A DNA stretch of 64,000 nucleotides from Tubulanus polymorphus. Its lineage: Eukaryota > Animalia > Nemertea. The stretch lies in contig NC_134027.1 in the NCBI RefSeq assembly GCF_964204645.1, forward strand, positions 13,424,485-13,488,484. The letters run 5' to 3'. Shown in pieces: positions 1,852 through 64,000 of this stretch (position 1 is its first letter; each line of letters starts with the position of its first letter). A model generated the notes under the pieces. The model was not told the origin of the DNA. It searched no databases and was given only the letters and a program-made list of their open reading frames with translations. A program made the position numbers and the translations under genes.

Positions 1852-2460
1852 ATGAATGAGGAATTATTTATATTTGAACCTCATAATATGTTAATTTCTG
1901 GTGTAACAAATTGTGGAAAAACTTATTTTATATTAAATTTGTTAGAAACTGTTTATAAAAACTATTTTGATAATATAGTATTATTTTGTCCAACATATGA
2001 ATTTAATCAAACTTATGATAGAAATATTACTAGAAATAATAAATTTATTATATTAGATCCTAAAACAGTAAAAGAAAATTTAGATAATTGTATTAAAATA
2101 GCAATAGATATTTATAAAGGATCAAATACATTATTCATTATAGATGATTGTGCTAATCTACATGATTCAAAAGTTAGAGAAAGTGAGTTATGTTATTTAG
2201 CTTTTTCTGGTAGACATTTTGGGATAACAACATGGGTTTTAAATCAAAAATATAATTCAATTGTTAAAGACTTTAGGGAGAATATAAGATTTCTAATTTT
2301 ATTCTACAATAAAGATAGAAAATCGATGAAAAATGCACTTGAGGAAAATGATATTATTCCACATGATTTACATAATGAATATATGGATAAGTTGAAAAAT
2401 ATTAAAAGATCAAAATTACTATTTAGATTACAACACCCATTTAAATATGAATTTATTTAA
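1852..2460 (+). CDS. A32/FtsK-like genome packaging ATPase
   Basis: Walker A GVTNCGKT, Walker B LFIIDD, and GRH..Q motif; Polinton context. Confidence 0.92.
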   Translation: MNEELFIFEPHNMLISGVTNCGKTYFILNLLETVYKNYFDNIVLFCPTYEFNQTYDRNITRNNKFIILDPKTVKENLDNCIKIAIDIYKGSNTLFIIDDCANLHDSKVRESELCYLAFSGRHFGITTWVLNQKYNSIVKDFRENIRFLILFYNKDRKSMKNALEENDIIPHDLHNEYMDKLKNIKRSKLLFRLQHPFKYEFI

Positions 2461-2735: not shown

Positions 2736-2764
2736 ACATCACAAGTAATTTTTTTGTTATATAA

Positions 2765-4145: not shown

Positions 4146-4452
4146 GTTTTAGCTAAGTATATAAGGCAATTCATTCAACCACTGGAGTGCCGCCGGGCTT
4201 GGCTTGCAGGGGCATTTCGAAAATGCACCTTTGTCCACCCTCCGTGGTTCTCCTTCAGTTTCGACTTTCGATCCTCCTTTCGGGGGTAAGGGGTTGATAG
4301 GAAATGCATTAGGCGCCTTTAATATAATGTGTTTCCTGTCAACCATTGAAGGAGAATTGGTGAGGTTTGGGTCACAGGGGTGTAATTAGAAATGCTTGGG
4401 GATAGGTATCTCGTGGCGCCTCTCAATAACGGGATGCTTATCCCCTAAAAAC
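4146..4452 (+). ncRNA. Putative structured non-coding RNA of Polinton copy A
   Basis: GC-richer island with nested stems (4239-4259/4345-4365, 4292-4311/4325-4344, 4398-4414/4429-4445). Non-Watson-Crick positions are mostly G-U on the + strand. Confidence 0.6.
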
Positions 4453-4760
4453 TCTGCGAGTCAAGTCGGGTGGTTTTGCTAAAACTTACCGTAAAAACAT
4501 TGAAATATTCCTTTTAATCACGAGAGAGAATGACTATCCTCCTGTCCTGTGTGTGTTGTATGTACTGCGTGCTTATTATATAACTGCTAGCTATCTAATA
4601 TAACAACAACGTTGTGCAACACCTGTTTGATTGATCAATATTCAAATGAAGCACTCTCTTATAATAACATGTAACAGATGTTTGACTGTATGATTGTAGT
4701 TGTTTATAAAACGACTAAGGTCATTTTGGATTCTAGATATTCATTATTTTTATTTCTTAT

Positions 4761-6807: not shown

Positions 6808-6888
6808 GGTTTCAGTATACTGGCCATTGCGATTAGGGTATCATTTAATTTTCTCTTGGGTTTTATAGTCATTATGGATATCATTTGT

Positions 6889-7683: not shown

Positions 7684-7713
7684 GATAGATAAACATTCTG
7701 GCCCTGCGCTTTC

Positions 7714-22749: not shown

Positions 22750-23084
22750 CATATATAAATTAGTTAATCTAAGTATAGAAATAGTTATAATATAATCTAT
22801 TTTTAATTTTTATTAAGTGAAAACATATAATTTTTTTCATCTTTATATTTTTAATTATTATTTAACTAATTCATATACCCAAGTACTAGAGGTTCGAGTA
22901 AGAATCAAAGAATTCTTACTTTCTTACTTTCTTACTTTCTTGGCAAGAATCTTGGTTTCTTATTCGTACGTCTCGTACTTAGATATATATAGTTATTTAA
23001 AAAAAGGGGTTTTAGGTATTAAGGTATCTAATACGTACCTAATATGTATCTAATACATAAATGCTTAAAGTAGCTTATTTTATA

Positions 23085-29157: not shown

Positions 29158-29425
29158 TTATAAAGATTCAACGTATTTTTCATTATGTGTTGAATTCCAT
29201 AATTCAACAAATGTCCTTGCTTTAACCAACTGGTCTAAATACAACTGTAAATCTAGTTTATTTCCTTTCCTAATATTTTCCTTCTTTTCAAGAGGTCTCA
29301 GGTTTTTCCAATTCCATATCAATTTCTTATTGTATTCATCATTCATATCAAATTTCGATATTGGTAACACGTGATCAAATGAAAGTATTCACCATAATTA
29401 TCTATATTCATTTTATCATCGAATG
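29158..29425 (-). pseudogene. HNH-type endonuclease C-terminal fragment
   Basis: MNIDNYGEYF/FDHVLPISKFD..WKNLRPLEKKENIRKGNK (one frameshift); truncated by the next element. Confidence 0.72.
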
Positions 29426-33618: not shown

Positions 33619-33704
33619 AAAGTGTATCCTGTTCTCGCGATTTAAAGCAAAAAATCGAATAAATACCTTTCGATCAGCTACTTTTTTCTCCCAGACACTA
33701 TAAC

Positions 33705-33797
33705 AGTAATTGGAATATCAGGGGTTCAGATCAGAGGACGAGAGGACGAGAGACCACTCATCACCACAAGTAATTTTTTTTCCTAATAAATGGGAGA
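33705..33797 (+). repeat. Left TIR of copy C
   Basis: Reverse complement of 46314-46406. Confidence 0.97.
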
Positions 33798-36700
33798 GAA
33801 TGAACACCAACCAGAAAATAGTAATGTTAATAAAAATCAATATTATTGCCAATGTTGTAAAAAATACGTCGATACATCTAATAAAACACGACATGAAAAA
33901 ACTGCAAATCATATAAAAAATGTAATAGATTTTGAAACTCCAGAAAATTCCAATGAAAGAAAAGAAAGATTAGAAAATATGAATGTAGATGAAATAAAAT
34001 GTGAAGTTTGTAATGAATTTATAGTAAAAAGGAATTATAATAGACATCTCGAATCACAAAAACACCATCAAAATTTGAGTAATAATGTTTTAGGAAAAGA
34101 TAAACCTCAACAAGTAAAAAAACCAACTTCAAAAACTAAATCCATTTCAAATAAACCTTACATGGAAAATGTTAGAAATTATATCGATTCACTAGAAATA
34201 AAAGATACAATTAAAATTTTAGAAACATCACGCAGTAAAATTGGACCTGCAGCTATTATATTTAGATTTTTTATAGGTACAACAATAGAAGATTATAGTA
34301 AATTTAATGAAATAATAGAAAAAATACTAGATTTGATAACAGATGTTGAATATCCAAAAATTAGTATCTCTGGGAAAGTAAGTTTTTTAAAGTCAGGAGA
34401 TAAAATGGATTATAATATTCAAACACACTCTGAAGAAATAATTTCAAAAACACAAATAAAAGAGAAGTTAGAAAAAATATTTAATGAATTTAAACGTCAT
34501 ATTGAAGAAAGATATTTTGAGGGTTCTGGCTTAACATTGAATGAAATTATATATTTAGATTTAAATGTTTATAATACAAAAAGAAATAAAACATCAAAAA
34601 GTAATAAAATGTTTAAAAATGATTCAAACTTTACAACAGAAAAGGATATCAAAGCATCATCTTATATTAAATTACCATTTACAACAAAAGCAGTAATAAA
34701 TGTTCAAAATGAAGATAATAAATGTTTTCTATGGTCAATTATTAGTTGCTTACATCCAACACAAGAAAATGTGCGTAGAATAACAGATTATCGGAAATAT
34801 GAAACATTATATAAAATTGATCAATATCCAGTAACTATAAAAATGATTCCTAAAATAGAAAAAGTTAATAATTTAAAAATAAATGTATTCGAATTAATGC
34901 AATTACCAAAGACAAAAGGTGAAAATATTAAAGATTATACATTGGAAGCTTTATATTTAACAGAATATTATGATGATGAAAATGCTATAGATTTGTTATA
35001 TTACAAAAAAGATGAAAATGAACATTATATGTGGTTAAAACAAATTGATTTATTCTTTAGAACAGAAAGTGATCACCATAATAAAATGTATCTATGTAGA
35101 AAATGTTTATCTAAATTTATGACTGAGAATACATTATTAAAACATAAAGAATTATGTGAGAATAAAGATTTTTGTAAATTAATAATGCCAACAGAAAAAG
35201 ATTATAAATTGAAATTTACTAATCATAAATTGAAGTTGAAAATGATGATAAAACTGATTGGGAAAGCGCAATTGCGAGTTTAAAAGATGAAGCACCAATT
35301 GGTTATTTCTTTGTAGTTGATTTAGAATATCCTGATAAAATAAAGTTTAAAACAAGAAACTTACCTTATTGCCCAGAACATTAAACTGTAGATGATAGTT
35401 ATTTAAGTGAATACCAGAAGAAAATAAAACCGAAAGATCATGTTTTTACAGAAAAATTAATAATAAATTCATATATATTGTTCATTATAGAATGTTAAAA
35501 TTTTATCTAAAACAAGGAATGAAATTAAAGAAAGTACATAGATATATTGAATTTAATCAATCGAAGTGGTTAGAAAAATATATAGATTTCAATACTCAAC
35601 AGAGAACCATATCAAAAACAGATTTTGAAAAAGATTTCTTCAAATTAATGAATAATAGTTTTTATGGTAAAACATGTGAAAATATTAGAAATAGAAATGA
35701 TATTGAATTAGTAAATAATTCTGAAAGATTAAGACATTTACAATCAAGCCCTAGACATTTAGGAAATAAAAGATTTGAAGATTATTTAACAGCAGTTAAA
35801 TTAAAAAGAACGTCAATGAAATTTAATAAACCTATATTCATTGGTTCAACTGTTTTAGAAGTATCAAAATTATTAATGTATGATTTTTATTATAATGTTG
35901 TACAACCACTTTTTGGGGAAAAGCATATTGAAATATTATATTTTGATTCTGTTACAGCTGACACCCCAATATTATTAAAATGTTATGATAAAATATTGAT
36001 AAGAAGAATTTCAGAAATAATTCCAAAACAAAATGAATGTTATATTTCATATGGTGAAAAAGAATTAATACAAATAAATGGTTTAATGGATGTTTGGACA
36101 AGAAATGGATGGAAAAAATTAAAGAATATTATTAGGCATAAAACAAATAAGAAAATCTATAGAGTTAGAACTAAATTAGGATTTGTAGATGTTACAGAAG
36201 ATCATAATTTAATTAAACGAAATGGCGATGAAATAAAACCAACTGATAAAAAAATTGGAGATGAATCATTACATAAAAGATTTTTCCAAAGAATGAATCA
36301 TATGCCATTTGATGAAATAATTGATAATATTTATAATATAGAACCCGAAACATTAGAAGAAAAAGAATATTTTATCAAAGGATTTCATGGGAGATGGTTC
36401 AGCAGGTGTGTATAATTATGTTTGGGGTAATAAATATTGTTGGTATTTATGCAATCAAGACTTAAAATTATTAGAAAGAATAAAGAAATTCTGTGAAGAA
36501 GTTTATCCAAATAAAACATTTAAAATCATAGATGTTATGAAATCATCGCAATGTTATAGAATACATGTGAATAATCCTAAAGATTTTGCTATAAAATATA
36601 ATGACGAATTCTATATTCATGCAATAGTGAAAAGTAATACTTCAACAAAAGAAAAGATAGTTCCAGATTATGTATTAAATGCAAAAAATAATTTTAGAAA

Positions 36701-37465
36701 ATGGTTCTTCATTGGATTCTACGCAGCAGATGGTCCAAAAAGTTTCAAAAACCGCAAAACGATATCTTAAGCTCAAAAAGGAAAAGTTGCTATATCAGGA
36801 TTGAATATATTATGCAATTCATTGGGTTTTAATATGAATATTGGATTGATTAAATCTAAACCAAATTGCTTTAATTTAAGCCATGTAGAAAATGAGTTAA
36901 CAGAAGAAGTTTAGGATTTATTTGAAATATATAACCCATCAGATTATGTTTATGATTTATCAACTGAAGATGGTACATTTAACTGTGGATTTCCATTAAT
37001 AGCAGTCAATACTGACGCCTACATACTAAAAATCAAGACAAATGACATAACAAAGACTTAAAAACATTAAAACATCATTTTGATTTTAGCAATTATCCCA
37101 AAGATCATGAACTATTTAGCAATGATAATAAAAAGATTCCTGGTAAATTTAAAGATGAACTAGGGGGTGATGAAATGATTGAATTTTTTGGGATAAGAAG
37201 TAAAATGTATAGTTATAGAACAAAAGATCATGAAGCTAAAAAGTTAAAAGGAATAACAAAACATGTGGTTGATAAACATATAGAATTTCAAGATTATATA
37301 AAGTGTTTATATAACTCAATTGTAATGAAACATAAAATGAATTGTTTAAGATCAGAAGATCACGAGATGTACATTAATGAAGTTGAAAAAACTAGTTTAA
37401 ATCCATTTGATGATAAAAGGCATATTTTAGATGATGGTATAAAAACATTACCTTATGGTTATTAA
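33790..37465 (+). pseudogene. Protein-primed DNA polymerase B with intein; disrupted
   Basis: N-terminal Zn fingers, SSYIKLP..INVQNEDNKCFLW, KLMNNSFYGKT, split YFD|TDA, SKMY, DDKR. About 1.37 kb deleted at 35232 relative to copy D. Confidence 0.95.
35948..37010 (+). other. Intein with LAGLIDADG homing endonuclease in pPolB motif C
   Basis: Starts SVTADTP; block B VTEDH; GF(F)MGDG and GFYAADG; block F YVYDLSTEDGTF; ends LIAVN followed by Thr. One frameshift and one stop. Confidence 0.95.
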
Positions 37466-38776
37466 AACATAAAATCAATATCATCATACTCGAAATCACT
37501 ATTGGCTTCTTCATTTTCATTTAATTGTTTAGGTTCTTCTTCCATTTCATTTTTCTCATTTAAATTAAGTTCTATCTTGTTCCACATTTCATCTCGCTCT
37601 CTTTGTTTCTTTTTGTTTGTTAATTCATCAAATGGAATTATAATATGTAGGTTTAAATAATTTACAATCTTATTTAAAAAGAATTCATAATAATTAATTG
37701 AATCTGTTATTCTATTTTCCAAATAATACATTAATATTTGTTTGAATATTTTTTTTTTATTTTTCATATCTTCTGTTAATTTAGGTTTTTCATAATAATC
37801 GTTAAATAATAAATATAAATACATTTTCTTTTGTTTTGTGTTAAATGTTGACGGAATAATTGTTTTTATAATATCTTTTTTTGTTATTTCACCATTTTTA
37901 TTTTCTATCATTTTCATTTTTTCAAGCCATTGCATATATTCTGGTGTATGATCTTCTATAGAAAATATTTTAAAAATTTCATCAAGATAATTTAATTTTG
38001 GATCTATGAGAAAATTTCTAGTTTTTTCTTCACCCAATAAATTCTTTTGCCATCCACATTCATTACAAAATAACACAGTACCTTCTTGCCTTAAGGTCGC
38101 ATAACTACATTGTGGGCATTTTTGTTTATAATTTATTGGTAATAGATCTTCATTAAGCTCTTGGTATTTTCTTACGTTTTCTTTATGTTTTATTGTTCTA
38201 TTATGTAGATTTGAATTACTTGTTGTAATAATCAATTTACAATATTTACAATAATGTTTTTCTTGTTAATTCATTATATTGTTTTTCTAACTTTTCAACT
38301 GTTTCTTTATTATCTGGTAACGTTTTCTCATATTTTATGTTTTCTAATAAATTATCTTTTCTTTCATTGAATTCAGTTTCAAATTTATTAGAAATTTTAT
38401 CTATATGTGCTTTACGAAATTGATGATTCTCCCAATCTTCTGTATTTTCAGGGCTATATTTCATTCGACAAGGCTCACAGAAATGATCTTTTATATTATC
38501 CTTATCATAGAATAAGAAAGGTCTTTTCCAAATACCTTCAGGTTCAACTTCAACAGAATTACTATTACTTTCATTACTATCAACATTAGCCGTTGCGCCA
38601 TTAATTCTACACTTCTCTGAATGTTTTTTAACATAATTTCTTGAGAATGATTTATTACATTTTGGACAGTTTAGTTTAGGGGGTTTATAATTTTCATCAT
38701 GTTTTTTCACATGTCGAGCCATATTACTTTTTCTTAGAAGTTAACCACAAATTTCGCATGGTATCTTCTCATCCAT
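37462..38776 (-). pseudogene. Multi-Zn-finger protein with C-terminal poxvirus A2/VLTF3-like late transcription factor domain
   Basis: CPQC..FCNEC ribbon, RNFLIDPKLNYL, IFKQIL..SINY(Y)EFFLNKI, EMWNKI. TAAATG start at 38776; one stop and a 2-nt frameshift (in frame in copy D). Confidence 0.75.
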
Positions 38777-38844
38777 TTATTAAGGAAAAATTTTATTAAA
38801 ATTAATTTTTAGTGATGAGCGGTAATTTTTTCATGTTATAAATA

Positions 38845-39606
38845 ATGGTAGAATTAAAAGAATACAGAATATTTGTTGATTCTAGAAGGCTTACAAATTA
38901 TAAATCTCATAATTTACTAGTACAATTAGATAGAGAATTCAAGAATTGTGTAGATTAAAAATTAGTTAATATAAGTTTATGTAATTCTTTTTACAATATA
39001 TCGAATAAAACTATTGAACATAGAGCCTTTTTAATTTTTGATAAAGGTAAAAATGAATGGTCCTATATATATTTAAAACCGGGGTTATATAATTTAGATA
39101 CATTAGCACAAGAAATTAATAGAAAAGCCTGGCACAAGTTAGGTAGTAGTTCTGGGTTTAGTATTAGATTTTTAAAAAGTGAGAGTTCTGATAGAATAAA
39201 GATAAGGTTGTCTAATAGTGAAAAACATAAATTTATGGTAAAAAAACCTATAGCTAAACTGTTAGGAATTCTTCCAGATAGATCTTTTAAAAATATTGAC
39301 GCTACTACACCAAACTTAATACCTTACACACATTTCTATATTTATTGCAATTTAATCGATCCTACAAAAACATTCGAAGCAACTAAAGATATAACTTGTA
39401 ATTCTGGTTTACTAAACATTTTACCATTGAAGAATGTTAAAGAATTTGGAACGCAAATAAATTATAATTTAACAGAATGTGATTTCAAACCATGCATTCC
39501 TCGTTTTAATAATTTTAGATTAGAAATTAGAAATCATAATGGATACTTAATTGATTTAAATAATTTCCCTGTAATTTATGAATTAGTTATAAGATGTAGA
39601 GAGTAA
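38845..39606 (+). pseudogene. Minor capsid (penton) protein, one frameshift
   Basis: IFVDSR..LCNSFYNIS N-terminus; FYIYCNL..ILPL..INY..LEIRNHNGYLIDLN C-terminus, typical of Polinton pentons. Confidence 0.8.
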
Positions 39607-39623
39607 TTTTTTTCACTATATAA

Positions 39624-39965
39624 ATGAATATAACTGTTGGACCGAGTTTATGTTTTGGGTTTGATTTTAAACATGGTAAAGAAATGAGAATTAAACTAAA
39701 TGATGTAATTACTGATATAAAAAGTAAATCATTTAACAATGAATCAATGATTAATAAAGAAAATTATAATATAGAAAAAGTAATTGATTTAATTAAATCA
39801 CCTTTAGAATATTATGAATTAAATGAAGATGGAATTATTGATGATATTAAAAACATATTAACCAAAATATATGATAATCATAAAAGTAGTAATGAAATAA
39901 ATGTTGAATTAATCATAAATAAGTTAACTAAATATTTTGATGATAGTAATTTTTTTGATAAATAA
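39624..39965 (+). CDS. Polinton hypothetical protein
   Basis: Conserved with 16801-17133; TAAATG start. Confidence 0.8.
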   Translation: MNITVGPSLCFGFDFKHGKEMRIKLNDVITDIKSKSFNNESMINKENYNIEKVIDLIKSPLEYYELNEDGIIDDIKNILTKIYDNHKSSNEINVELIINKLTKYFDDSNFFDK

Positions 39966-40187
39966 ATGAGTGATAATAAGTGGATAATAACTGGATTATA
40001 TAATGGCGCATTACTATCAGTTGGAACTGTTGGTTATTCAATGGTATTGAAAAAAGTATTTAAAATGGGAAGTGTTAATGTTGATAGATTTGATATAAAT
40101 GATATTTTAAAATTAACATTAGCAGTTACTTTATCTAATTTAACTATTGATTATTTAGAAAAACAAAAATATATTCCTCCCATATAA
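39966..40187 (+). CDS. Small hydrophobic Polinton protein
   Basis: Two hydrophobic stretches; homologue at 17141-17387. Confidence 0.78.
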   Translation: MSDNKWIITGLYNGALLSVGTVGYSMVLKKVFKMGSVNVDRFDINDILKLTLAVTLSNLTIDYLEKQKYIPPI

Positions 40188-40211
40188 ATGCGTAATTATT
40201 TTACTAAATAA

Positions 40212-40634
40212 ATGGCTTCTGCAATTATAACTATTATAGGATCGGCTATTGTTAACGCTTTGGCATTTACTGGTGGCGGATATTTATTTAAACATATTGA
40301 TAAAAATAGTTCATTAGGAGAACAAAGAAGACATAACTTAGCGTTAGAGAAATACAATAAAGCTGCAGAAGAATATAGAGAAAAGGGACAAAACTATATG
40401 GATTACATCAATAAAGAATTATATGGTCAGAAGATTTCACATAGAGATTTTCAATCAGTTGATGATGCAATGAGTTAATATAACTCAGTAACCAATAAAG
40501 AAAAATTACATCTACATAAACCTACAATATCAGATTATTATACCCCAAGTAAAGAACAACAGAAATATGAAATAATATGGATTTTAGGTGGAACAGTTAT
40601 TGTTATATTTGTTGCTTATAAGTTTACTAATTAG
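40212..40634 (+). pseudogene. Membrane protein with N- and C-terminal hydrophobic helices (frameshift at ~40477)
   Basis: MASAIITIIGSAIVNALAFTGG; the homologue at 17388-17810 shows the C-terminal continuation. Confidence 0.75.
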
Positions 40635-40654
40635 TAATTTTTTTTGCTAAATAG

Positions 40655-41088
40655 ATGGAAGATAAAGTTGATAATATTGATATTATTCCTCATGATATAA
40701 ATAAAACTAAACTAAAAACATATTTAGAAAAACAAATATTAGAATTTGAAAGTGACTTAAAGATAAAAAAGAAAAAATATTTAAAAAGTAAAATTATATA
40801 TTATTTGATTATAAGTGGTTCGGTTACAATTAGTTCTGTAATAACATTTCTAGCAATATTCAGTCCATTAACACCTTTAGCTATATCAATTGGTGTATTA
40901 GGATTAAGTTCAAGTGTTTTAACTGGTATAAGTTCAAAATTAAATATAAAAAGTAATAAAGAAAAAATTAAAACTAATATAAAGAAATTAATAAATTAAA
41001 GAATACACTAGATTATATAATAAGTTTAAATGGTCATATAACAGTTGAAGAACAAGATAAATTATTAAAAGAATTAATAAATTATTAA
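40655..41088 (+). CDS. Two-TM Polinton protein (probable frameshift near 40980)
   Basis: IIYYLIISGSVTISSVITFLAIF and LAISIGVLGLSSSVLTGI; homologue starts at 17836. Confidence 0.72.
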
Positions 41089-41104
41089 TTTTTTAATTAT
41101 ATAA

Positions 41105-42496
41105 ATGGTAGATAGTTTTCCAAAAGCTTTCCAATATAATAAATCAATTAAATATAATATTCCAGCAATAGATTTTAATAAAGATATTACATATAGAAAT
41201 GAAGTTTTAGATTCATTAACTAATTTAGAAATTTATGTTACTGAAACTAATAATTTTAATGCAAAGATGGAAAATATATTTCATGTATATTTAATTAATT
41301 TTAAAAAATTGAAAGATGAAAAACAATGGTTATTAAAATCTAATATGAAGTATTGGCAGAACCAATTAAATTTTGCTGTTTATTGTGCAACAACAGGTTG
41401 TGGAATTAGTTGGAATGATCATTTGAATAATTCTAAATATAAATTAATTCAAAGTTTATTTAGATTTCATACATACTTTCAAATAAGAATAATATTAAAT
41501 GAATTAGAGTGCGCTTTACCAGGATCTAGGTATTTTAAAGAATTAGATAATAATATTAATTTAACAAAGTTTTATAAAATTTGTAATGAATTTAATATAG
41601 ATATAAATAATTCTGATTTTAGAACAAAAATTGGAACAATAAGATCACTTCCTTGCCCTAAAAAGACTGCAGAATATTGTGCACTTCCCATACCATCTAA
41701 TAGTTATCTTTATAATATCTATAGTAATAAATTAGGTTATGGTAAAATAGAAACTAAGGATTTAGAAACATTAAATTTCAATAAATTACCGACATTTTAT
41801 GATAATTTAAAACAAGAAAACAATAATGGTTGGGTTTATTTCATTTTAGAAAATAATGAAGGTTTTACAAAATCAGGTATACAAAGAATAAATCAATCTA
41901 TTAGAACTTATTTGATATGTATTTTAGGTGCGCAAGTTGAAACAAGATCCCCGATAATTGGAAATTTGAATACATCATTTGATACGCAGAAACAATTCAA
42001 AGTATTATTTGAAGATTCAATTCATAATGATAAAAATAGATCGATTCCAGAAAACATTGTAAGATATCAAAATTATTTAGATACATCACATATTAGATTA
42101 AATTATTGTATAGGCCCTAATCTATTCATTATTTCTAATGATTTAGTATTAAAGATGGGAAACATAATTGGTTACAATAATCTAATTAAAACTGCAACAA
42201 TAGATAATTCATTTGGATTAAATGATATAAATAAAAAGATTATTACTTCTCCAAAATTAATGGAAGGTGAAAAAAATAAAAAACACATTCAATCAACAGA
42301 AACTAAAACTAAGAATATCAAATTGGATAATGATTCCAAAATAAAAGATTACAATACTACAGAAAATATTAAAATTGATAATATTCAACATAATATAATT
42401 AAAACTGATAATGATAATAAATTACATGAAAATACTAAATTAGCTTTAACTTGTATAGGAATTGTTATAGGAGGAATATTATATTTTGAATTTTAA
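41105..42496 (+). CDS. Polinton conserved hypothetical protein with C-terminal TM anchor
   Basis: Intact 463-aa ORF with WQNQLNFAVYCATTGCGIS and YLICILGAQVETRS; decayed homologue at 18040-18713. Confidence 0.85.
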   Translation: MVDSFPKAFQYNKSIKYNIPAIDFNKDITYRNEVLDSLTNLEIYVTETNNFNAKMENIFHVYLINFKKLKDEKQWLLKSNMKYWQNQLNFAVYCATTGCGISWNDHLNNSKYKLIQSLFRFHTYFQIRIILNELECALPGSRYFKELDNNINLTKFYKICNEFNIDINNSDFRTKIGTIRSLPCPKKTAEYCALPIPSNSYLYNIYSNKLGYGKIETKDLETLNFNKLPTFYDNLKQENNNGWVYFILENNEGFTKSGIQRINQSIRTYLICILGAQVETRSPIIGNLNTSFDTQKQFKVLFEDSIHNDKNRSIPENIVRYQNYLDTSHIRLNYCIGPNLFIISNDLVLKMGNIIGYNNLIKTATIDNSFGLNDINKKIITSPKLMEGEKNKKHIQSTETKTKNIKLDNDSKIKDYNTTENIKIDNIQHNIIKTDNDNKLHENTKLALTCIGIVIGGILYFEF

Positions 42497-42512
42497 TTTT
42501 TTTATGATATAA

Positions 42513-43973
42513 ATGGATGTAGAAGGTGGAGAAGATATTGGAATGGATAATTTTGATGAACCTGGTATAACTGATGAACAACCACCTGATTTTGATGAAA
42601 CAAGTTTCAGTAACGAAAATGAAACAGCATATAATTCTAATTTAGCAAGACCTGATACTAATGAATATGTTAATAAAGCACGTTCAAGATTGGACATTGA
42701 AAATGAAAATCCAGATTTAATGAAAAAAGAACTAGAATATGACGAATTAACTGATAAATTCAAACCAATATTAGAAAAATCTGGATTCAATATAACAAAT
42801 AAAGGTGTGAATTATTTAGTAAAAGATGTGAAATATTTAAATGGTGATTATTATTGGCATTTGAAAGATTACTATTATTTTAAGATATCTTCTAATAAAA
42901 GTCTCGATAAAATGATAACAAAACCAACTTTAATTAAATTAGAACAATCTAGAATTAAGAAAATCAACAATGATGTTATAACTGATGTTACAGAACAAGA
43001 GATAAATCAAAATAGAATAGAATTTAATCGAAGAAATAATGATTTTTTGAAGATAATTAGTGAAAATTTAGAACCAGAAACAATTCCTAAAGAAGATATA
43101 ACTTCCAAAACTAGTAAACTTAAATCAAATAAAGTTCAAACTGAAAAACTTTTACCGAAGGGATTACTTGATGCAACAAAACAAGAATTAGAAGATTTAG
43201 ATATATTTTCTGGTAAAGCAATAAGAGAAATTGAAAGTATAAGACATGCATCTGATAAAATTGCGCATGAAAAAGAAATAAGAGATATTAAAATTAGATT
43301 TTTAGAAAAAGAATTAACTGATAAAAATAAAGAAATAGAACAATTAAAGTCTGATTTAGATCATCAAGTAATTAATGAAATAGAATATAGGCAAAAAGAA
43401 TTACGTTTAGAAAAAGAAAAAGATGATTTAGAATATAACATAGAATTACAAAAAGAAGAAATTAAATTATTATTAAAATCATATGATTATAATATAAAAA
43501 GATTAAAAGATGTTTTTAAAAGATATCTAATAAAACCAAATTCTAAAATATCATTGAAAGATAGAATAGAATTATTATTTAAGTTTGAAGGAATCACAAT
43601 TCTTTCAATTCTAACAGCTGTAACTATGTTATTTACAACAATAGGTTTAGCAATATCAAATGCTTTGAAATCTACCCCTACTCCCAATAAACCAGATAAA
43701 CCCCCGAATGATAATAATTCTATACAAGATAAAGTTAAAGATGGTTTAAAGAAATTAGTAAAATATTTATGGGAACTATCTAAAAAATCTGCTGCAGCAT
43801 TGCCAGGAGTTATTGCATCAATTGTTGGTTTTATATTGAAATCTGCAGGAAACATTATTAACTTTGCTGCTGAACATATTATTTTATTTTTAATTACAGT
43901 TGTAAGTGCTATCATTTTTGGGTTAGTGAATATGATATCAAAAAGATATCAAGAAAAAAATGATAAAAAATAA
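42513..43973 (+). CDS. Coiled-coil protein with C-terminal hydrophobic helices
   Basis: Intact 486-aa ORF: acidic N-terminus, long heptad region, two to three hydrophobic segments; homologue at 18732-20196. Confidence 0.85.
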   Translation: MDVEGGEDIGMDNFDEPGITDEQPPDFDETSFSNENETAYNSNLARPDTNEYVNKARSRLDIENENPDLMKKELEYDELTDKFKPILEKSGFNITNKGVNYLVKDVKYLNGDYYWHLKDYYYFKISSNKSLDKMITKPTLIKLEQSRIKKINNDVITDVTEQEINQNRIEFNRRNNDFLKIISENLEPETIPKEDITSKTSKLKSNKVQTEKLLPKGLLDATKQELEDLDIFSGKAIREIESIRHASDKIAHEKEIRDIKIRFLEKELTDKNKEIEQLKSDLDHQVINEIEYRQKELRLEKEKDDLEYNIELQKEEIKLLLKSYDYNIKRLKDVFKRYLIKPNSKISLKDRIELLFKFEGITILSILTAVTMLFTTIGLAISNALKSTPTPNKPDKPPNDNNSIQDKVKDGLKKLVKYLWELSKKSAAALPGVIASIVGFILKSAGNIINFAAEHIILFLITVVSAIIFGLVNMISKRYQEKNDKK

Positions 43974-43997
43974 ATAATTAATTTTTTTGTTTAATAA

Positions 43998-45245
43998 ATG
44001 AGTGGGAGTTATATAAGTCCTTCTAAGAATCATAGAATATCTAATGCTATTAAAGCAGAAAGATTACATCATATAATTACTCATAACCCTTCTAATATTA
44101 ATCCCGATGAAACTTTATATGTTAGAATTCCTCGATTAACACAAAATACTTTTTATGTTCCAAATAGTATTTATTTATCAGCTGATATAAAAGTAATTGG
44201 TCATGATAATAATTATGTTGTTGATAATGTTGGGAGATATTTGATTAAAAAATTAACTATAAAGATTGGTCCAGAAACAGTTTTCTCATTAGATGATTAT
44301 AATTTATTTATGCATTATAAAGATTTATGGTTAACTAAAGAAAATAGAAATGATATGATATTTCAAGGCATCCAATCAGAAAACCATAATAAATTAAGAT
44401 CTGAAGCCAATAATGCAGTAGTAACTAGTGCCGCAGATAATTTGATAAAAAAGATTTATGGAAGCAAATATAAAATTCCATTATACTTTGAATTGATAAA
44501 TAACAATGCGCCTTTATATAAATATGCAATTCAAGAAGATGTTATATTCGAAATAACATTTGCTCCTGTTAATGAAATTGTAATATCTAGCGTTAATAAA
44601 GATATGGGTTATAAATTATCGAATATATGTTTAGAATATGATACAGTAACTGATGAAAATATTTCAAGTATAATTCAAACTCAATACAATCAAGGATTTT
44701 CATTATTATATGATTACATTGATAAATTTAAAACTGTAACTATTAATGCAAATGATGAAATAATTAATGAGAATATTAACTTCCCAAGAAGATCTATTAA
44801 AGGTATATTAATATTTTTTACCATTGCAACATATACTAATGGCGCAATACAGGTTGATAAGTATTATAATCCTGAAATAACAAAAGTAGAAATAACTATC
44901 GAAGGAATAGCAAATAAAATATTTTGTCAAGGAATGAGAATGATAGATCAGTGGCCAGAAATTAGAAAACATTTTATGAATGAAAAAGTGAAATCATTTG
45001 AAAATTGTAATATTAATCAAATTGATTATTATACCGGCAATAAATATGCATTATGGTTAGATTTTAGAACAACAGAGGATAATTCATTACATGGTTCTGG
45101 AAAAAAACTACAGAACACTAAACATGGAATACAATTATTCATGAAAAAGAAAAGAGGAGACAAAAATTTTAAAATGCACATTTATATTATATCTGATGCC
45201 CAATTAAATATTGTAAATTCACAGTTAGATAGTATTCAATATTAG
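43998..45245 (+). CDS. Major capsid protein (double jelly-roll, inferred)
   Basis: Intact 415-aa beta-rich ORF, highly conserved across copies A, B and C, next to integrase/ATPase. Confidence 0.82.
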   Translation: MSGSYISPSKNHRISNAIKAERLHHIITHNPSNINPDETLYVRIPRLTQNTFYVPNSIYLSADIKVIGHDNNYVVDNVGRYLIKKLTIKIGPETVFSLDDYNLFMHYKDLWLTKENRNDMIFQGIQSENHNKLRSEANNAVVTSAADNLIKKIYGSKYKIPLYFELINNNAPLYKYAIQEDVIFEITFAPVNEIVISSVNKDMGYKLSNICLEYDTVTDENISSIIQTQYNQGFSLLYDYIDKFKTVTINANDEIINENINFPRRSIKGILIFFTIATYTNGAIQVDKYYNPEITKVEITIEGIANKIFCQGMRMIDQWPEIRKHFMNEKVKSFENCNINQIDYYTGNKYALWLDFRTTEDNSLHGSGKKLQNTKHGIQLFMKKKRGDKNFKMHIYIISDAQLNIVNSQLDSIQY

Positions 45246-45275
45246 AAATATAAAGTTAAAATTAACGATATATAA

Positions 45276-45880
45276 ATTAGAGGTAAAAAAACTCCTAATA
45301 CTAAAGAACAATATTTAAGAAATTTATATTACAACCCTGAGAGTTCGGTTGCTTATTCTTCTACCAAAAATATATGGCGTAAAGTAAAACAAGATAAATT
45401 AGATAAGACAATCCCACACAATTTAGTTAAATATAAAGATATAAATGAATTTATGTTAGAACAACCAACGTACACAACACATAAAAACATTGTTAGAAAA
45501 TATATAAAACTCGTAAAACTATGGTAAGTTATGTAGATCAACAGTGGCAAGGAGATTTAATTGATATGAAAAATGTTAAGAAAGATAATGATGATTATTG
45601 GTGGTTATTGAATATAATTGATATTTTTAGTCGTTATGTATGGAGTTTCCCACTTTATAGAAAAGATGCTGTACAAACATCAAATGTTTTAAGAAAATTT
45701 CTTTCGGTTGATAAACTAAAACCAGAAAAAATACAATTTGATGATGGAAAAGAGTTTGATAATTCACTTGTTCATGAACTCTTAGATAATCATAATATTA
45801 AATATTTTTCAACAAAATCGGATAAAAAAGCAGCAGTTGATGAACGATTTAATAGAACTTTAAGAACAATATTCAAATGA
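45276..45880 (+). pseudogene. Integrase, truncated by internal deletion
   Basis: Nearly identical to 766-1353. At ~45868 it joins sequence equivalent to ~4638 of copy A. Confidence 0.92.
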
Positions 45881-45996
45881 AGCACTCATAATAATAATAA
45901 TAACATGTAACAGATGTTTGACTGTATGATTGTAGTTGTTTATAAAACGACTAAGGTCATTTTGGATTCTAGATATTCATTATTTTTATTTCTTAT

Positions 45997-46321
45997 TTAA
46001 TCAACAATTTCTAAATCATGATGACCGTCTTCATTTTTCCCATGATAGATTATTTTAAATCCTACTAAATCTTTCGTTCCTCTGTACTCAATGAAACCCA
46101 TTTATCAGGTAAAAATACTTTAAATTCTCGCGATGTACTAACATTACAGTAGCTTAAATTTGCTGATACTTTCTCTCCGTATTTAGTTTTTATCTTTTCT
46201 AATTTCAATATTTTATGTTCAATTTCTTCTGTAACATCAATTAACTTTTTTATTTCAAATTGTTTTTTGCTGGTTTAAGTCTGTTATTTATTGTTGCTAA
46301 GAATGCTTTTCTATCTCCCAT
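45997..46321 (-). pseudogene. Terminal small ORF, frameshifted copy of 4761-5087
   Basis: Near-identical DNA to 4761-5087. Confidence 0.88.
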
Positions 46322-46406
46322 TTATTAGGAAAAAAAATTACTTGTGGTGATGAGTGGTGTCTCGTCCTCTCGTCCTCTGATCTGAACCCCTGATATTCCA
46401 ATTACT
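46314..46406 (-). repeat. Right TIR of copy C
   Basis: Reverse complement of 33705-33797. Confidence 0.97.
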
Positions 46407-47813
46407 TATAACAACCCGAAATCGAAGCTCTGAGCAAGCGTTAAATCCGCACAGACTTCGAACAATCCATGAGTTTAAACAGGCCATCGCGAATCGATTT
46501 TGTATAACAACCGCCACTGCAGGCGAAGCGCATACTGCCAAGCGCGCTATAACCGAGTTGCTTAGCAGCGCCGCGGTGCGGAATAGTACGCCGACTCCCC
46601 ATTGATATATTATCCATGATTTTAAGAATTCATCTAAACAACCCAATAAATTAGATAGTGTTTCTGAATGCGCTTCTTTACTGAATAAATGTGATACTTT
46701 TGATCTTAAACATTGATATCTTTCTCTAATATATTCTGTCATATAATCATTATAATGTTCTCTATTATCTTTTTTTCCAATTTCTCATATATTCTGGATT
46801 ATTTGCTCGCCATTGTTTTTTCAATTCTTTACATTTTTCTAGATTATTTGTATAATATTGTTTACTATTTTGATTATGACAGCTTTATCTCGTAAACCAT
46901 CATTACCAATCTTACGTTTATAATAGTCTGTAAATGGCTTACTTTTTGGTTTACCTATGTCAGCGATATGATGTTGGCATTGAGCCAATTCATGTAAAAT
47001 CGCGGTACGTTTTTTTATGTGAGCATTTCTTTTATTGGTTCTCGGCTTAAACGACGTATAATCGATGCGATTGAAGACATGGCGAACCTCCGTCGATGAC
47101 ATGGTCAACTGAGTTAAAATTCTACGAAAAACTGTTTTTGGCGGGAAAATTCTTTGCTCTCGCGTATAAAATTGCAATAACCTCGATTGGGGGCGTCGTC
47201 TCTACGAGCGAATGGGATTGGCTGTTTTTGGGATTTACGGGGAATTCCGGCGCTACTAAAATAATTATGGGAAAGCCGTAGAATGGCGTACGTTTTATTG
47301 GACTAGGTGCCGTATACGTGCGAATTTCAAATGCTCATTGCTGGTGAGGATGTAATTATTTCACACATCCGCCATAGGTATTGTTTCATTTTAATACCCG
47401 GTGATTGTTTCGATTGAAATTGAGGTGTAAGCGAATATTCACTCATACGAGGCCTCCACATGCACGCGGAGTGTTACACTACACACACAAGCTCGTACAG
47501 TACACTACTCAAGGTGATGCTGTAATGCGTCCACCACGTCTGACATGAAAATAGGCTGAATAATCGTAGGAGAAGATGAGCGCTGTGTTTTCTGTTCGAT
47601 AGAATTTGTAATAAATTGTAATTTCTTATGACCTGAAAATACTAAGCAGCAAACTATAAGGTCTGTCGAGGTCTGAATATTGTAGTGGTAAATTCCAGGA
47701 TTTTAAACGATCTAATAGCCGATTTCTTCTGTACCGGTATTTTAGCTTCCGCGACCAAGGAAGACGTTTCCAAGACCTCAGCCACCCTCTGATGTGACAT
47801 CATATGAATTTTA

Positions 47814-57985: not shown

Positions 57986-58073
57986 AAACATTAGAAATAG
58001 GGAAAGTGGGCTTTCATACCAGAGTACGAGAGTACTAGCTCTCATCACCACAAGTAATTTTTTTTCCTTATAA

Positions 58074-61000
58074 ATGGGGGGAATGAACAACATACAGAAA
58101 ACAATAATGTCAATAAAAATCAATATTATTGCCCGTATTGTAAAAAATACATCGATAAATCTAATAAATCTAAACATGAAAAATCTGCAAATCATATAAA
58201 AAATGTAATAGATTTTGAAACTCCAGAAAATTCCAATGAAAGAAAAGAACGATAAGATGATATGAATGTGGATGAAATAAAATGTGAAGTTTGTAATGAA
58301 TTTATAGTAAAAAGGAATTATAAAAGACATCTCGAATCACAAAAACACCATCAAAATTTGAGTAATAATGTTTTAGGAATAGATTTTTTTGATGATAAAC
58401 CTCAACAAGTAAAAAACCAGCTTCAAAAACTAAATCTATTTCAAATAAACCTTACATGGAAAATGTTAGAAATTATATTGATTCACTAGAAATAAAAGAT
58501 ACAATTGAAATATTAGAAACATTACGTAGTAAAATTGGTCCTGCAGCTATTATATTTAGATTTTTTAAAGGTACAACAATAGAAGATTATAGTAAATTTA
58601 ATGAAATAATAGAAAAAATACTAGATTTCATAACAGATGTTGAATATCCAAAGATTAGTATCTCTGGGAAAGTAAGTTTTTTAAAGTCTGAAGAGAAAAT
58701 GGATTATAATATTCAAACACTCTCTGAAGAAATAATTTCAAAAACGCAAATGAAAGTTAGAAAAAATATTTAATGAATTTAAACGTCATATTGAAGAAAG
58801 ATATTTTGAGGGTTCTGGTTTAACATTGAATGGGATTATATTTTTAGATTTAAATGTTTATAATACAAAAAGGAATAAAACATCAAAAAGTAAAACAATG
58901 TTTAAAAATGACTCAAACTTTACAACAGAAAAGGATATTGAAGCATCAAGTTATATTAAATTACCATTTACAACAAAAGCAGTAATAAATGTTCAAAATG
59001 AAGATAATAAATGTTTTCTATGGTCAATTATTAGTTGTTTACACCCAACAGAAGATATGACGCATAGTTTTAGAATAACAAATTACCGGAAATATGAAAC
59101 ATTATATAAAATTGATCAATATCCAGTAACTATAAAAATGATTCCTAAAATAGAAAAAGTTAATAATTTAAAAATAAATATATTTGAATTAATGCAATTA
59201 CCAAAGACAAAAGGTGAAAATATCAAAGATAATACATTGGAAGCTTTATATTAAACAGAATATTATGATGATGAAAATGCTATAGATTTGTTATATTACA
59301 AAAAAGATGAAAATGAACATTATATGTGGTTAAAACAAATTGATTTATTCTTTAGAACAGAAAGTGATCATCATCATAAAATTTATCTATGTAGAAAATG
59401 TTTATCTAAATTCATGTCTGAGAATTCATTATTAAAACATAAAGAATTATGTGATAATAAAGATTTTTGTAAATTGATAATGCCAACAGAAAAAGATTAT
59501 AAATTGAAATTTACTAATCATAAATTTAAGAATATTGTTCCATTTGTAATTTATGGGGATTTTGAATCGTTGAATAAAGAATTAACTGATCAAGATAGAA
59601 AAGAAATATATAACAAAAAGCAATTATTGAAATCAATGGATAAAGGAAATGAACTAAATGAAGATATAATTCCCACCATAAGACCCACCAATTATAAATA
59701 CAATTACAAAAGTTCATCAAAGAGCTGCTGCTTATGGAATTTACATAAAATAAAATTATCCTGAATTATATGAAAGTCGATATATTTCTTTTAGAGGTGA
59801 AGATGTAGTTAATAATTTTTGTACCAAAATAATTGAATTAGAAAGTGATTTTGCAGAATTATTAAACAAAATAAAAGAATAGTTATGACAAAAGAAGATG
59901 AAATTGATTTTAATTATGCAACTCATTGTTGTTATTGTGAAAAAAACGTTTTTATTCATTTGATAAAAAAGTTAGAGATAATGATCATTTAAATTCAAAA
60001 TACCGCGGAGCTGCTCATGAAGATTGCAATTTACAAGCTAAGAAAGTTAATTTCGTTCCAATATTATTTCATAATTTATCAGGCTATGATACCCATCTAT
60101 TTATAAAACAATTATCGGGAAAATTGGGCGCAATTAATCAAGAAATAGAAGATGTAATGCCATGAATGGTGTAAATGTAAGAAAATATGATTTTAAACTA
60201 TTAGCTAAAACATCTGAAAATTATATTTCATTTCAATTTGGTTGCATTAGATTTTTAGATTCTTATAGATTTCTAGCAAGTTCATTAGATAATTTAGCAA
60301 AAAGTTTAGTTGATAATGATTTTGTTATAACTCGATATTATTATCCAAATGAACAAGATTTTAAATTATTGAGATATAAAGGTGCAATTCCTTATTCATT
60401 TTATAAAACACACAATGATTTTAATGTAACAGAATTATTAAAAGATCAATTTTATGATCAATTAAAAGAGGAGTATGTGAAAGACGAAGTGTTTAATAGA
60501 ACATTAAATATTTGGAACAATTTTAAGATGGAAAATCATGGTGAATTAGTTGATTTATATTTAAAATCAGATGTTATGATATTGGCTGACATATTTGAAA
60601 AATTTAGAGAAGTTAATTTGAATCATTTTAATGTTGATCCTTGTTATTGCTACTCTAGTCCTGGTTTAACCTGGCAATGTGGTTTAAAATATACAAATGT
60701 AGAGTTAGATTTATTAAAAGAACCAGACATGGTTTTATTATTTGAAAAATCAATTAGAGGTGGAATTAGTGGTGTTATGGGAGATAGATATTTTAAAGCA
60801 AATGATGAATATAAATTATTATATATTGACGCCATTAATTTATATGGTTGGGCAATGATGCAACCTCAACCTTACAAAAATTTTATATTAACAGAAGTTG
60901 AAAATGGTGATAAAACTGATTGGGAAAGCGCAATTGCGAGTTTAAAAGATGAAGCACCAATTGGTTATTTCTTTGTAGTTGATTTAGAATATCCTGATAA

Positions 61001-63008
61001 CATAAAGTTTAAAACAAGAAACTTACCTTATTGCCCAGAACATATAACTGTAGATGATAGTTATTTAAGTGAATACCAGAAGAAAATAAAACCGAAAGAT
61101 CATGTTTTTACAGAAAAATTAATACTTACTCAAAATAATAAATACAATTATATCGTTCATTATAGAATGTTAAAATTTTATCTAAAACAAGGAATGAAAT
61201 TAAAGAAAGTACAAAGATATATTGAATTTAATCAATCGAAGTGGTTAGAAAAATATATAGATTTCAATACTCAACAGAGAACAATATCTAAAACAGATTT
61301 TGAAAAAGATTTCTTCAAATTAATGAATAATAGTTTTTATGGTAAAACATGCGAAAATATTAGAAATAGAAATGATATTGAAATAGTAAATAATTCTGAA
61401 AGATTAAGACATTTAAAATCAAGTCCTAGACATTTAGGAAATAAAAGATTTGAAGATTATTTAACAGCAGTTAAATTAAAAAGAACGTCAATGAAATTTA
61501 ATCAACCTATATTCATTGGTTCAACTGTTTTAGAAGTATCAAAATTATCAATGTATGATTTTTATTATAATGTTGTACAACCACTTTTTGGGACAAAAGC
61601 ATATTGAAATATTATATTTTGATTCTGTTACATCTGACACCCCAATATTATTAAAATGTATTGATAAAATATTGATAAGAAGAATTTCAGAAATAATTCC
61701 AAAACATAATGAATGTTATATTTCATATGGTGAAAAAGAATTAATACAAATAAATGGTTTAATGGATGTTTGGACAAGAAATGGATGGAAAAAATTAAAG
61801 AATATTATTAGGCATAAAACAAATAAGAAAATCTATACAGTTAGAACTAAATTAGGGTTTGTAGATGTTACAGAAGATCATAGTTTAATTAAACGAAATG
61901 GCGATGAAATAAAACCAACCGATATAAAAATTGGAGATGAATTATTACATAAAAGATTTTTCCAAAGAATGAATCATATGTCATTCGACGAAATTATTGA
62001 TAATATTTATAATATAGAACCCGAAACATTAGAAGAAAAAGAATATTTTATCAAAGGATTTTTCATGGGTGATGGTTCAGCAGATGTGTATAATTATGTT
62101 TGGGGTAATAAATATTGTTGGTATTTATGCAATCAAGACTTAAAATTATTAGAAGGAATTAAGAAATTCTGTGAAGAAGTTTATTCACATAAAACATTTA
62201 GCATCATGGATGTTATGAAATCATCAGCAGTTTATAGAATACTTGTAAATAATCCTAAAGATTTTGCTATAAAATATAATGATGAATTCTATATTCATGC
62301 AATAGTGAAAAGTAATACTTCAACAAAAGAAAAGATAGTTCCAGATTATGTATTAAATGCAAAAGATAATTTAAGAAAATGGTTCTTCATTGGATTCTAC
62401 GCAGCAGATGGTGCTAAAAAATTTTAACTGAAAAAGATTTAACTGAAAAAGTTCAAGATTTATTTGAAATATATAACCCAACAGATTATGTTTATGATTT
62501 ATCAACTGAAGATGGCACATTCAACTGTGGATTTCCATTAATTTGCTTCAATACGGATGCGTACATACTAAAAATCAAGACAAATGACATAACAAAAGAC
62601 TTAAAAACATTAAAACATCATTTTGATTTTAGCAATTATCCCAAAGATCATGAACTATTTAGCAATGATAATAAAAAGATTCTGAAATGTTTAAAGATGA
62701 ATTAGGGGGTGATGAAATTATTGAATTTGTTGGGATAAGAAGTAAAATGTACAGTTACAGAACAAAAGATCATGAAACTAAAAAGTTAAAAGGAATAACA
62801 AAACATGTGGTTGATAAACATATAGAATTTCAAGATTATATAAAGTGTTTATATAACTCAATTGTAATGAAACATAAAATGAATTGTTTAAGATCAGAAA
62901 ATCACGAGATGTACATTAATGAAGTTGAAAAAACTAGTTTGAATCCATTTGATGATAAAAAGGCATATTTTAGATGATGGTATAAAAACATTACCTTATG
63001 GTTATTAA
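58074..63008 (+). pseudogene. Near full-length protein-primed DNA polymerase B (Zn fingers, endonuclease VII-like insert, exonuclease, intein), frameshifted
   Basis: YGDFES, VRDNDHL..YRGAAHEDCNL, FHNLSGYD, FLDSYRF, YIDAINLYG, KLMNNSFYGKT and YFD|TDA motifs. Confidence 0.95.
61624..62552 (+). other. Intein in pPolB motif C (second copy, ~135-bp internal deletion)
   Basis: SVTSDTP..VTEDHSL..GFFMGDG..GFYAADG..YVYDLSTEDGTF..LICFN followed by TDAY. Confidence 0.95.
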
Positions 63009-64000
63009 AATGGATCAATATCATCAAACTCGAAATCACTATTGGTTTCTTCTTTTTCATTTAATTGTTCTTGTATAATTTGTTTAGGTTCTTCCATTTC
63101 ATTTTTCTCATTTAAATAAAGTTCTATCTTGTACCATATTTCATCTCGCTCTCTTTGTTTCTTTTTGTTCGTTAATTCATCAAATGGAATTATGATATCG
63201 ATGTTTAAATAATTTTACAATCTTATTTAAAAAGAATTCATAATTAATTGAATCTGTTATTCTATTATCCACATAATATCTTAATATTTGTTTGAATGTT
63301 TCTTTTATATTTTCCATATCTTTTTCTGTTAATTTAGGTTTTTTATAATAATCGTTAAATAATAAATATAAATACATTTTCTTTTCTTGTGTGTTAAATG
63401 ATATGTTAAATGATGTGTTGATGGAATAATTGTTTTTATCATATCTTTTTTAGTTATTTCACCATTTTTATTTTCTATTATTTTCATTTTTTCAAGCCAT
63501 TGCTTATATACTGGCGTATGATCTTCCATAGAAAATGTCTTAAATATTTCATTTTATATATTAATTATGATATTTTAATTTTGGTTCTATAAGAATATCT
63601 CTAGTTTTTTCATCACCCCATAAATTTTTTTGCTATCCACATTCATTACAAAATATCACAGGACCTTCTTGTCTTAAGTACTCATAAATACATTGTGAGC
63701 ATTTTTTTCTATCATAGCTTTGTAATTGATCTTCATTAAGCTCTTGGTATTTTCTTACGTTTTCTTTATGTTTTTATTGTTCTATTATGTAGATTTGAAT
63801 TACTTGTTGTAATAATCAATTTACAATATTTACAATAATATGTTTTTCTTGTTAATTCATTATATTGTTTTTCTAACTTTTCAACTGTTTCTTTATTATC
63901 TGGTAACGTTTTCTCATATTCTGTTTCAAATTCATTAGAAATTTTATCTATATGTTCTTTACGAAATTGATGATTCTCCCAAGCTTCTATATTTTCAGGA
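63005..64000 (-). pseudogene. VLTF3-like/Zn-finger gene, frameshifted, 5' part outside window
   Basis: ETFKQILRYYVDNRITDSINYEFFLNKIV; colinear with 37462-38460. Confidence 0.75.

Follow-up and report, generated by a model that had tools for sequence, protein, structure and literature searches.

A clade-wide, vaccinia-late-like start motif in animal Polintons may point to transcription by a pox-type helper virus

Maverick/Polinton elements (adintoviruses, Polintoviricetes) encode a protein-primed family-B DNA polymerase (PolB), an rve integrase, an A32 ATPase and a double-jelly-roll capsid, carry terminal inverted repeats (TIRs) with AG...CT ends and are flanked by 6-bp target-site duplications (TSDs). 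They also have variable accessory genes, as in group 2, and, in a subgroup that includes coral elements, a VLTF3 gene. Here we describe such an element at positions 33705-46406 of a 64,000-nucleotide stretch from the nemertean Tubulanus polymorphus (contig NC_134027.1; ‘the window’ means this whole stretch). It is a genuine but defective Polinton copy, virus-like, in an animal-type genome. Its lineage differs from known Polintons in a clade-wide poxvirus-type start motif (with the outgroup relatives L015-L016 as the Polinton control), an intein and a structured RNA island, and in short TIRs that hold promoters and start codons of both terminal genes. Pfam gave no match to an adenovirus-type cysteine protease in the scanned open reading frames (ORFs) of the window copies and of L003, an 11.5-kb close relative, a set that has several ORFs of no assigned family and no complete intact genome.

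Entomopoxvirus-associated Polinton-like viruses (PLVs; AHEV_PLV1/2, CBEV_PLV1, Ca_PLV1) are likewise small and capsid-coding and are proposed poxvirus parasites in an animal (PMC11296320), so that the company of PLVs and large DNA viruses, mentioned in a preliminary description of this locus, is already published. They encode a protease, have no rve integrase and were linked to their helper by co-purification, whereas the window lineage is endogenous and multi-copy and its link is a promoter signature; the two are set apart by description, and the words promoter, TAAAT, motif and VLTF are absent from the main text of PMC11296320. Mavirus and the endogenous EMALE virophages of Cafeteria share with the window lineage PolB and rve integrase, chromosomal copies and one helper-late-type motif before most genes. 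For Mavirus, however, the host is a protist, the helper is CroV and dependence is experimentally shown, while in the window lineage we infer it. The yeast cytoplasmic virus-like elements (pGKL) are similar in their protein-primed PolB, TIRs, very AT-rich packed genes and TAAA-type initiator; unlike the window lineage, they have RNA polymerase and capping enzyme genes of their own and are not known to carry a capsid or integrase gene.

At nine of the 12 gene starts of the focal element a T-run is followed by TAAATG, much as the preliminary description had said of nearly all its genes. The non-canonical starts are TAAAT-A-ATG (38845), TAGATG (40655), whose counterpart in the related copy B of the window is TAAATG, and the damaged start of the integrase. 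Positions -12 and -13 are both T in all ten starts with TAAATG or TAGATG, and the bipartite pattern TAAT-T-run...TAAATG is present seven times in the element against a mean of 0.145 and a maximum of 1 in 200 shuffles. Relatives were collected by a metagenome scan with the capsid alignment, which gave 23 loci (17 near relatives, L015-L016 and four decayed loci), and starts were called mechanically from ORFs of at least 100 aa with a complete 5′ end. TAAATG stands at 56 of 65 starts (86%) in the 17 near loci, several of which are near-duplicates (e.g. L001/L002), at none of seven in L015-L016 and at none of five in the decayed loci. A FastTree phylogeny of the capsid (44 rows) places L015 outside the clade of motif-bearing loci. 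As controls, the same hexamer was found at 36 of 551 spurious short-ORF starts (6.5%; 16 near loci, L002 excluded) and at 26 of 806 host ATGs. Four near loci with 33-44% GC still have it at 10 of 12 starts, and the motif-free L015-L016 have 29-30% GC. An upstream stop codon overlaps the motif in 5/56 TAAATG starts, and 15 of the motifs precede divergently oriented genes.

Upstream of these starts, T peaks at -12 (58/65) and -13 (45/65), which correspond to the 9th-10th base upstream of TAAAT, and -3 is T in 57/65. Ribosomes that scan for a start codon are ill served by a T at -3, except where a poly(A) leader takes its place. In vaccinia late promoters, TAAAT followed by G lies over the start codon and a conserved T is found at the 10th base upstream (PMC11980589); it is this published description, and no known helper, that the motif matches. 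In sum, the start motif is found across the clade, does not depend on AT content, is mostly not a matter of stop-start coupling and is vaccinia-late-like in spacing. Depletion of T5NT in coding strands (observed/expected, O/E, 0.31) had been considered as a sign of pox early termination and was dropped, as T5 (0.54) and A5NA (0.75) runs are depleted too.

No RNA polymerase gene was seen in the element lineage, which, together with a pox-late-type motif on nearly all genes, makes transcription by a helper the best reading; the motif is also present at the polymerase and integrase genes. On balance it seems probable that a co-infecting pox-type large DNA virus supplies the late-stage RNA polymerase that transcribes the genes of this lineage, which would imply a satellite (provirophage) life. 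The many AATAAA signals kept in the coding strands, the VLTF3-like domain and a deoxynucleoside kinase gene in L003 (all described below) also speak for this reading. During infection, the helper polymerase would start at TAAAT, slip and add a 5′ poly(A) leader, turning the T at -3 into a favourable A; such slippage at TAAAT has been described (PMC6211774). The element's own VLTF3/A2-like protein might help to recruit or redirect the helper polymerase. Replication would be protein-primed from the TIRs, followed by packaging in the element's own capsid and re-entry into a chromosome through the chromodomain integrase, and defective copies such as the focal one would be carried along in trans. 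Virophages provide a precedent for use of a helper's late promoter (PMC10945749), and PLVs occur in entomopoxvirus occlusion bodies (PMC11296320). For the helper dependence advanced in the preliminary description, the clade-wide motif supplies evidence, and the dependence itself stays at the level of inference.

The gene that may encode this factor has zinc fingers and a VLTF3-like domain of poxvirus A2 size. In the ESM Atlas, 27 of 30 matches of the window domain fall in PF04947 clusters (score 0.93, 203 shared features), as do 28 of 30 for its homologue P0265 (named clusters only; score 0.95, 210 shared features), a search in which shuffled proteins score 0.9 in 4-10 of 100 cases. An exhaustive search recovered two homologues, P0264 and P0265, both intact, the former being the full-length version of the last L003 ORF; a word-index homologue search returned none, and PDB sequence searches returned no VLTF3. 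The single-sequence model was poor (pLDDT 42) and had no significant Foldseek match (best E 0.093), and we note as a lead only that the top 25 include VLTF3s of Tetraselmis virus 1, cowpox, two entomopoxviruses and a pandoravirus. Judged by these domain comparisons, the gene is probably a member of the VLTF3 family, as first described, with C-terminal motifs that may be nearer to poxvirus A2 than to Mimivirus-type VLTF3. VLTF3 is known in animal Polintons, in a subgroup including coral elements (PMC11131425) and likewise in PMC8502044; it is common to all nucleocytoplasmic large DNA virus (NCLDV) genomes of one survey (PMC8715426) and present in ~30% of some PLV clusters (10.64898/2026.06.19.733378).

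The intein in the polymerase is confirmed as such, with HINT and LAGLIDADG parts. It begins with Ser and ends with Asn before Thr, boundaries that match database inteins; the TIGR01445 score is above the cut-off of 24.5 bits in both intein-bearing copies, the focal one (31.6 bits) and copy D, the copy D intein matches PI-PkoII (E 1.1e-5), and copy B has an empty intein site. Insertion site and Ser...Asn/Thr ends are those of the motif-C inteins of giant-virus family-B polymerases, for which we assume the label ‘Mimivirus type’. Among the best 120 of 330 intein matches, 111 carry PF00136, seven are protein-primed polymerases and two are topoisomerases with the same intein family (P0139, P0247). 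In a FastTree phylogeny of 109 rows (12 matches dropped for missing boundaries or short alignment; copy D represented by its unbroken first 266 aa), six Polinton inteins form their own clade (support 99) inside a 25-row group (98) of DNA-primed polymerase inteins, the host polymerases of which are scattered over the extein tree. Two of these polymerases were checked, P0150 being Pol-delta-like and P0145 RB69/T4-like; the best solved relatives of P0145 and P0147 are the RB69/T4 phage enzymes. Motifs in several of the intein-bearing polymerases suggest Imitervirales. As the intein is also found in a T4-like phage polymerase, it is not Mimivirus-specific, and the ‘Mimivirus-like’ intein of the preliminary description is a real intein under too narrow a name. 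It records an old exchange with large DNA viruses, and it does not identify a pox helper. Its use as a marker of the present helper was rejected, and the earlier argument from intein homing is weak, because the intein belongs to one old Polinton clade with nearest relatives in non-pox polymerases. Polinton polymerases with intein-type insertions are noted in PMC11161782.

A number of observations weigh against a pox-type helper. The motif counts are not independent, given the near-duplicate loci, and the motif-free Polinton control is small, consisting of the seven starts from L015-L016 only. The T peak is one base nearer than the figure given in PMC11980589, and coding strands show no shortage of internal TAAAT (O/E 1.07), a mild point. 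Pfam detects zinc fingers only, and no VLTF3, in the window ORF and its two homologues; moreover, VLTF3 is so widespread in NCLDVs and PLVs that it is no pointer to poxviruses. The nearest non-Polinton relatives of the intein sit in Pol-delta-like and RB69-like polymerases. Finally, integration requires a nuclear phase, whereas the proposed polymerase is cytoplasmic.

In a nuclear alternative, an autonomous Polinton is transcribed by host Pol II, steered by its own VLTF3-like and zinc-finger proteins, from a private T-run/TAAAT core promoter that is pox-like by descent or convergence. Chromosomal integration with a chromodomain integrase and a putative transcription factor of its own are what such an element would have, small viruses with VLTF2/3 and genomes of 35-45 kb exist (Mriyaviruses), and coral Polintons encode VLTF3 (PMC11131425). 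We nevertheless consider it unlikely, if worth keeping in view. AATAAA occurs every ~220-335 nt of coding strand and is barely depleted (139 in 46.6 kb, O/E 0.88 by synonymous shuffles in 51 genes of 16 near loci; 1.13 in 8 window ORFs), with small controls (0.52 in L015-L016; 0 against 3.8 expected in four host long interspersed nuclear element, LINE, frames); as with the yeast cytoplasmic elements, such a density ill suits nuclear 3′-end processing. With this motif there is also no room for a 5′ leader, a VLTF3 gene that shares the promoter would be unable to start the cascade alone, and the motif-free relatives indicate that the family can do without it.

In a second alternative there is a helper of another kind, either a non-pox cytoplasmic large DNA virus or an element like a linear plasmid, whose multisubunit polymerase also uses a TAAA-type initiator. 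The intein does connect this lineage with polymerases outside the poxviruses, a TAAAN initiator is used by yeast virus-like elements, and the literature searched yielded no poxviruses of marine invertebrates. We regard this too as unlikely, since the asfar-like late motif TATATA and the Mimivirus early motif AAAATTGA differ from the motif seen here (PMC11788076), a T placed 9-10 nt upstream is a specific fit to the late class of poxvirus promoters, and the old intein need not derive from the present helper. A third reading, in which AT-richness and stop-start packing alone give rise to the motif, in an element of ~23% GC with 37 TAAATG among its 531 ATGs, is rejected as highly improbable, being largely excluded by the contrast of real and spurious starts, the persistence at higher GC and absence from the AT-rich outgroups, the few stop-coupled cases and the motifs before divergent genes.

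The characters that place the element with Mavericks/Polintons are a protein-primed PolB, an rve integrase, TIRs with 6-bp TSDs, a double-jelly-roll capsid and, in copy A, an A32 ATPase (Table 1). The two TIRs have one mismatch over 93 bp, and positions 33705-46406 are the exact element ends. Both TIRs (33705-33797, 46314-46406) hold the promoter motif and the start codon of the adjoining terminal gene, so that the same repeat serves as promoter for the polymerase at the left end and for a small conserved gene at the right end. As initially reported, the genes are tightly packed and very AT-rich, with ~22-26% GC in the interior against ~33-41% in the flanks.

Table 1. Positions of the focal Polinton, of its family members in the window and of their features
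Feature	Position	Strand	Remarks
Left TSD	33699..33704		6 bp, TATAAC; same 6-mer at 46407..46412
Left TIR	33705..33797	+	93 bp, first bases AG; holds T-run/TAAATG promoter-like motif and polymerase gene start codon
Protein-primed PolB gene	33790..37465	+	broken; traced by tblastn from P0133, an intact relative
Intein with LAGLIDADG endonuclease remnant	35948..37010	+	PolB YFD/TD motif-C site; frameshift and stops
Zinc-finger and VLTF3-like (poxvirus A2 family) gene, membership probable	37462..38776	-	at least 3 frames
Candidate minor capsid (penton) gene	38845..39606	+	one internal stop
Four small conserved genes	39624..41080	+	starts 39624, 39966, 40212, 40655; two broken
Conserved 463-aa ORF	41105..42496	+	homologues 34-68% identical in L003, L007, L018, L020
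486-aa coiled-coil protein	42513..43973	+	hydrophobic C-terminal segments; conserved beside capsid gene
Major capsid protein, double jelly roll	43998..45245	+	frame open
rve integrase	45276..45869	+	PF00665 43 bits; start damaged, frameshifted, truncated
Terminal gene	45997..46321	-	starts within right TIR; broken
Right TIR	46314..46406	-	93 bp
Right TSD	46407..46412		6 bp, TATAAC
Copy A	1-5171		right end of element
Copy A integrase with chromodomain	766-1851	+	PF00665 41.1 bits, PF00385 weak
Copy A A32 packaging ATPase	1852-2460	+	PF04665 49.7 bits; module (766..2460) absent from focal copy
Copy A RNA-like island	4184..4479	+	RNA fold; GC-rich, almost fully paired, branched, ~300 nt
Copy B	~12.8-29.4 kb		65-87% identity, diverged subfamily, broken up by other insertions
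HNH endonuclease remnant	29158..29388	-	beside copy B; 70% nucleotide identity to L001 HNH gene
Copy D	57990..64000 (window end)	+	left end, polymerase with intein, 3′ part of VLTF3-like gene; also broken

The AlphaFold model of the capsid (pLDDT 90.2) matches large-DNA-virus capsids in Foldseek (E 5.6e-20), and in a fold ranking, on which its comparison with virophages is based, PBCV-1 (Z 27.7, rmsd 3.3, 355 aligned), faustovirus (Z 24.3) and African swine fever virus stand above Sputnik (Z 18.8) and Mavirus (Z 18.0). An annotated distant capsid homologue (38%) exists in the bivalve Mactra antiquata. Further capsid relatives, of 55% identity and placed within the clade that bears the motif (P0046 with its cluster), carry the label Bartonella sp. 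in several assemblies; an animal host or vector is the probable source of this contamination. The minor capsid candidate was assigned with a 5-homologue profile, whose sole PDB match is PBCV-1 P1v1 (E 0.066, weak). The small genes have homologues in L003, L005-L007, L010 and L016, and the one at 40655 is weakly SLATT-like (SLATT_fungal E 0.0013 in L003, below cut-off); the 463-aa ORF has no match in Pfam or PHROG. L003 further encodes, at 10340-10981 (-), a deoxynucleoside kinase with a TAAATG start (PF01712, 110 bits), to our knowledge an unusual enzyme for Polintons. Scans of viral contigs with the capsid, intein, polymerase P0133 and RNA island gave no relatives, and neither did scans of genome contigs and of phage records.

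The focal copy is decayed. Relative to copy D, in which PF03175 is found at E 2.6e-16, its PolB has lost ~1.36 kb internally near 35235 and is further interrupted by several stops and frameshifts. Another deletion, near 45865, removed the integrase end, the ATPase, two genes and the RNA island (copy A junction 1354/4633), and the terminal gene, intact in frame in copy A (4761-5087) and L003, is broken. Having lost its entire ATPase and portions of both polymerase and integrase, it is unable to reactivate alone, and the reactivation from the host genome suggested for the lineage in the preliminary description is not supported for this copy. Between the two TIRs identity is 99%, and the outer segment common to both differs from copy A; near-identical TIRs in a copy that most reads match at 90-99% only suggest that the element was copied and inserted when already diverged, presumably mobilised with proteins supplied in trans.

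Self-blast of the window revealed four family members, the focal copy and copies A, B and D. Read run X6 covers the element mostly at a depth of 200-1000, compared with ~9 in one flanking bin, and 657 of its reads run from the right end of copy A into dissimilar flanks, which together suggest roughly tens of element copies; most reads match the focal copy at 90-99% only. In run X1 one contig joins both flanks without the element, and is either an empty allele or a paralogous copy of a repeated flank. Run X8, assumed to be RNA, has two records on the focal region and none on copy A. The flanks of the focal element contain a LINE-type endonuclease and frames with PHD and reverse transcriptase. 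Right of the TSD, 46599-46712 (-) is similar to the L001 HNH gene (tblastx E 3e-6); insertion of the focal copy thus appears to have taken place within or next to the remains of an older Polinton. Copy B bears two later insertions, a 1.5-kb insert in its minor capsid gene (14736-16284) and a PHD-endonuclease LINE fragment that splits it between ATPase and integrase (23340-25320), as well as an imperfect palindrome with short tandem repeats between convergent genes (22600-22990). Repeated non-coding spacers are also seen 3′ of the ATPase in copy A (2460-2730) and L003, and a further LINE, likewise a later insertion, lies right of copy A (5890-8955).

Two features of the preliminary description, the structured RNA island and the HNH gene, lie outside positions 33705-46406, both being absent from the focal copy. 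The island in copy A folds as RNA at -154 kcal/mol (z -11) on the + strand and -93 (z -3.8) on the - strand, and at z -6.5 as DNA. Its + strand has 111 pairs, 21 of them G-U, and its - strand no G-U pairs; this strand asymmetry argues for selection on an RNA, and a decayed DNA palindrome was rejected on the same ground. Two long hairpins (4292-4344, 4398-4445) are of pre-miRNA-like size. Rfam gave no island match at E<=1 and none for the window at gathering score, a simple pattern detected no Pol III boxes, and a GC scan and blastn of seven related loci found no similar island, apart from a GC-rich coding stretch in L014. Read depth over the island in X6 is at family level. We speculate that it could be a double-stranded RNA decoy or a small-RNA precursor. 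Homologues of the HNH remnant are accessory genes of L001, L006 and L007, the L001 protein matching PF01844 at E 0.0055, below cut-off.

VLTF3 in animal Polintons and poxvirus-associated PLVs were already known. For a link between Polintons and a TAAAT promoter, no report was found in the literature searched, which does not include supplements, subscription journals or Repbase reports, and earlier notice is possible. As a tentative broader view, which we hold with less confidence than helper transcription itself, this clade of animal Polintons would consist of integrated satellites of undescribed poxvirus-like viruses, with their own A2/VLTF3 factor to capture the helper polymerase and with every gene under a late promoter of pox type; the present family would add a decoy of double-stranded RNA, 300 nt long. 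The expression, spread and helper dependence of animal Polintons are a long-standing open question, which a pox-type promoter makes testable, and reading the promoter logo of an endogenous element to deduce its helper could serve as a general method. If true, the proposal predicts poxvirus-like viruses in invertebrate hosts where our literature search found none, would extend the provirophage model from protists to animals, and may mean that these elements give invertebrates an inducible, Mavirus-like defence against poxviruses.

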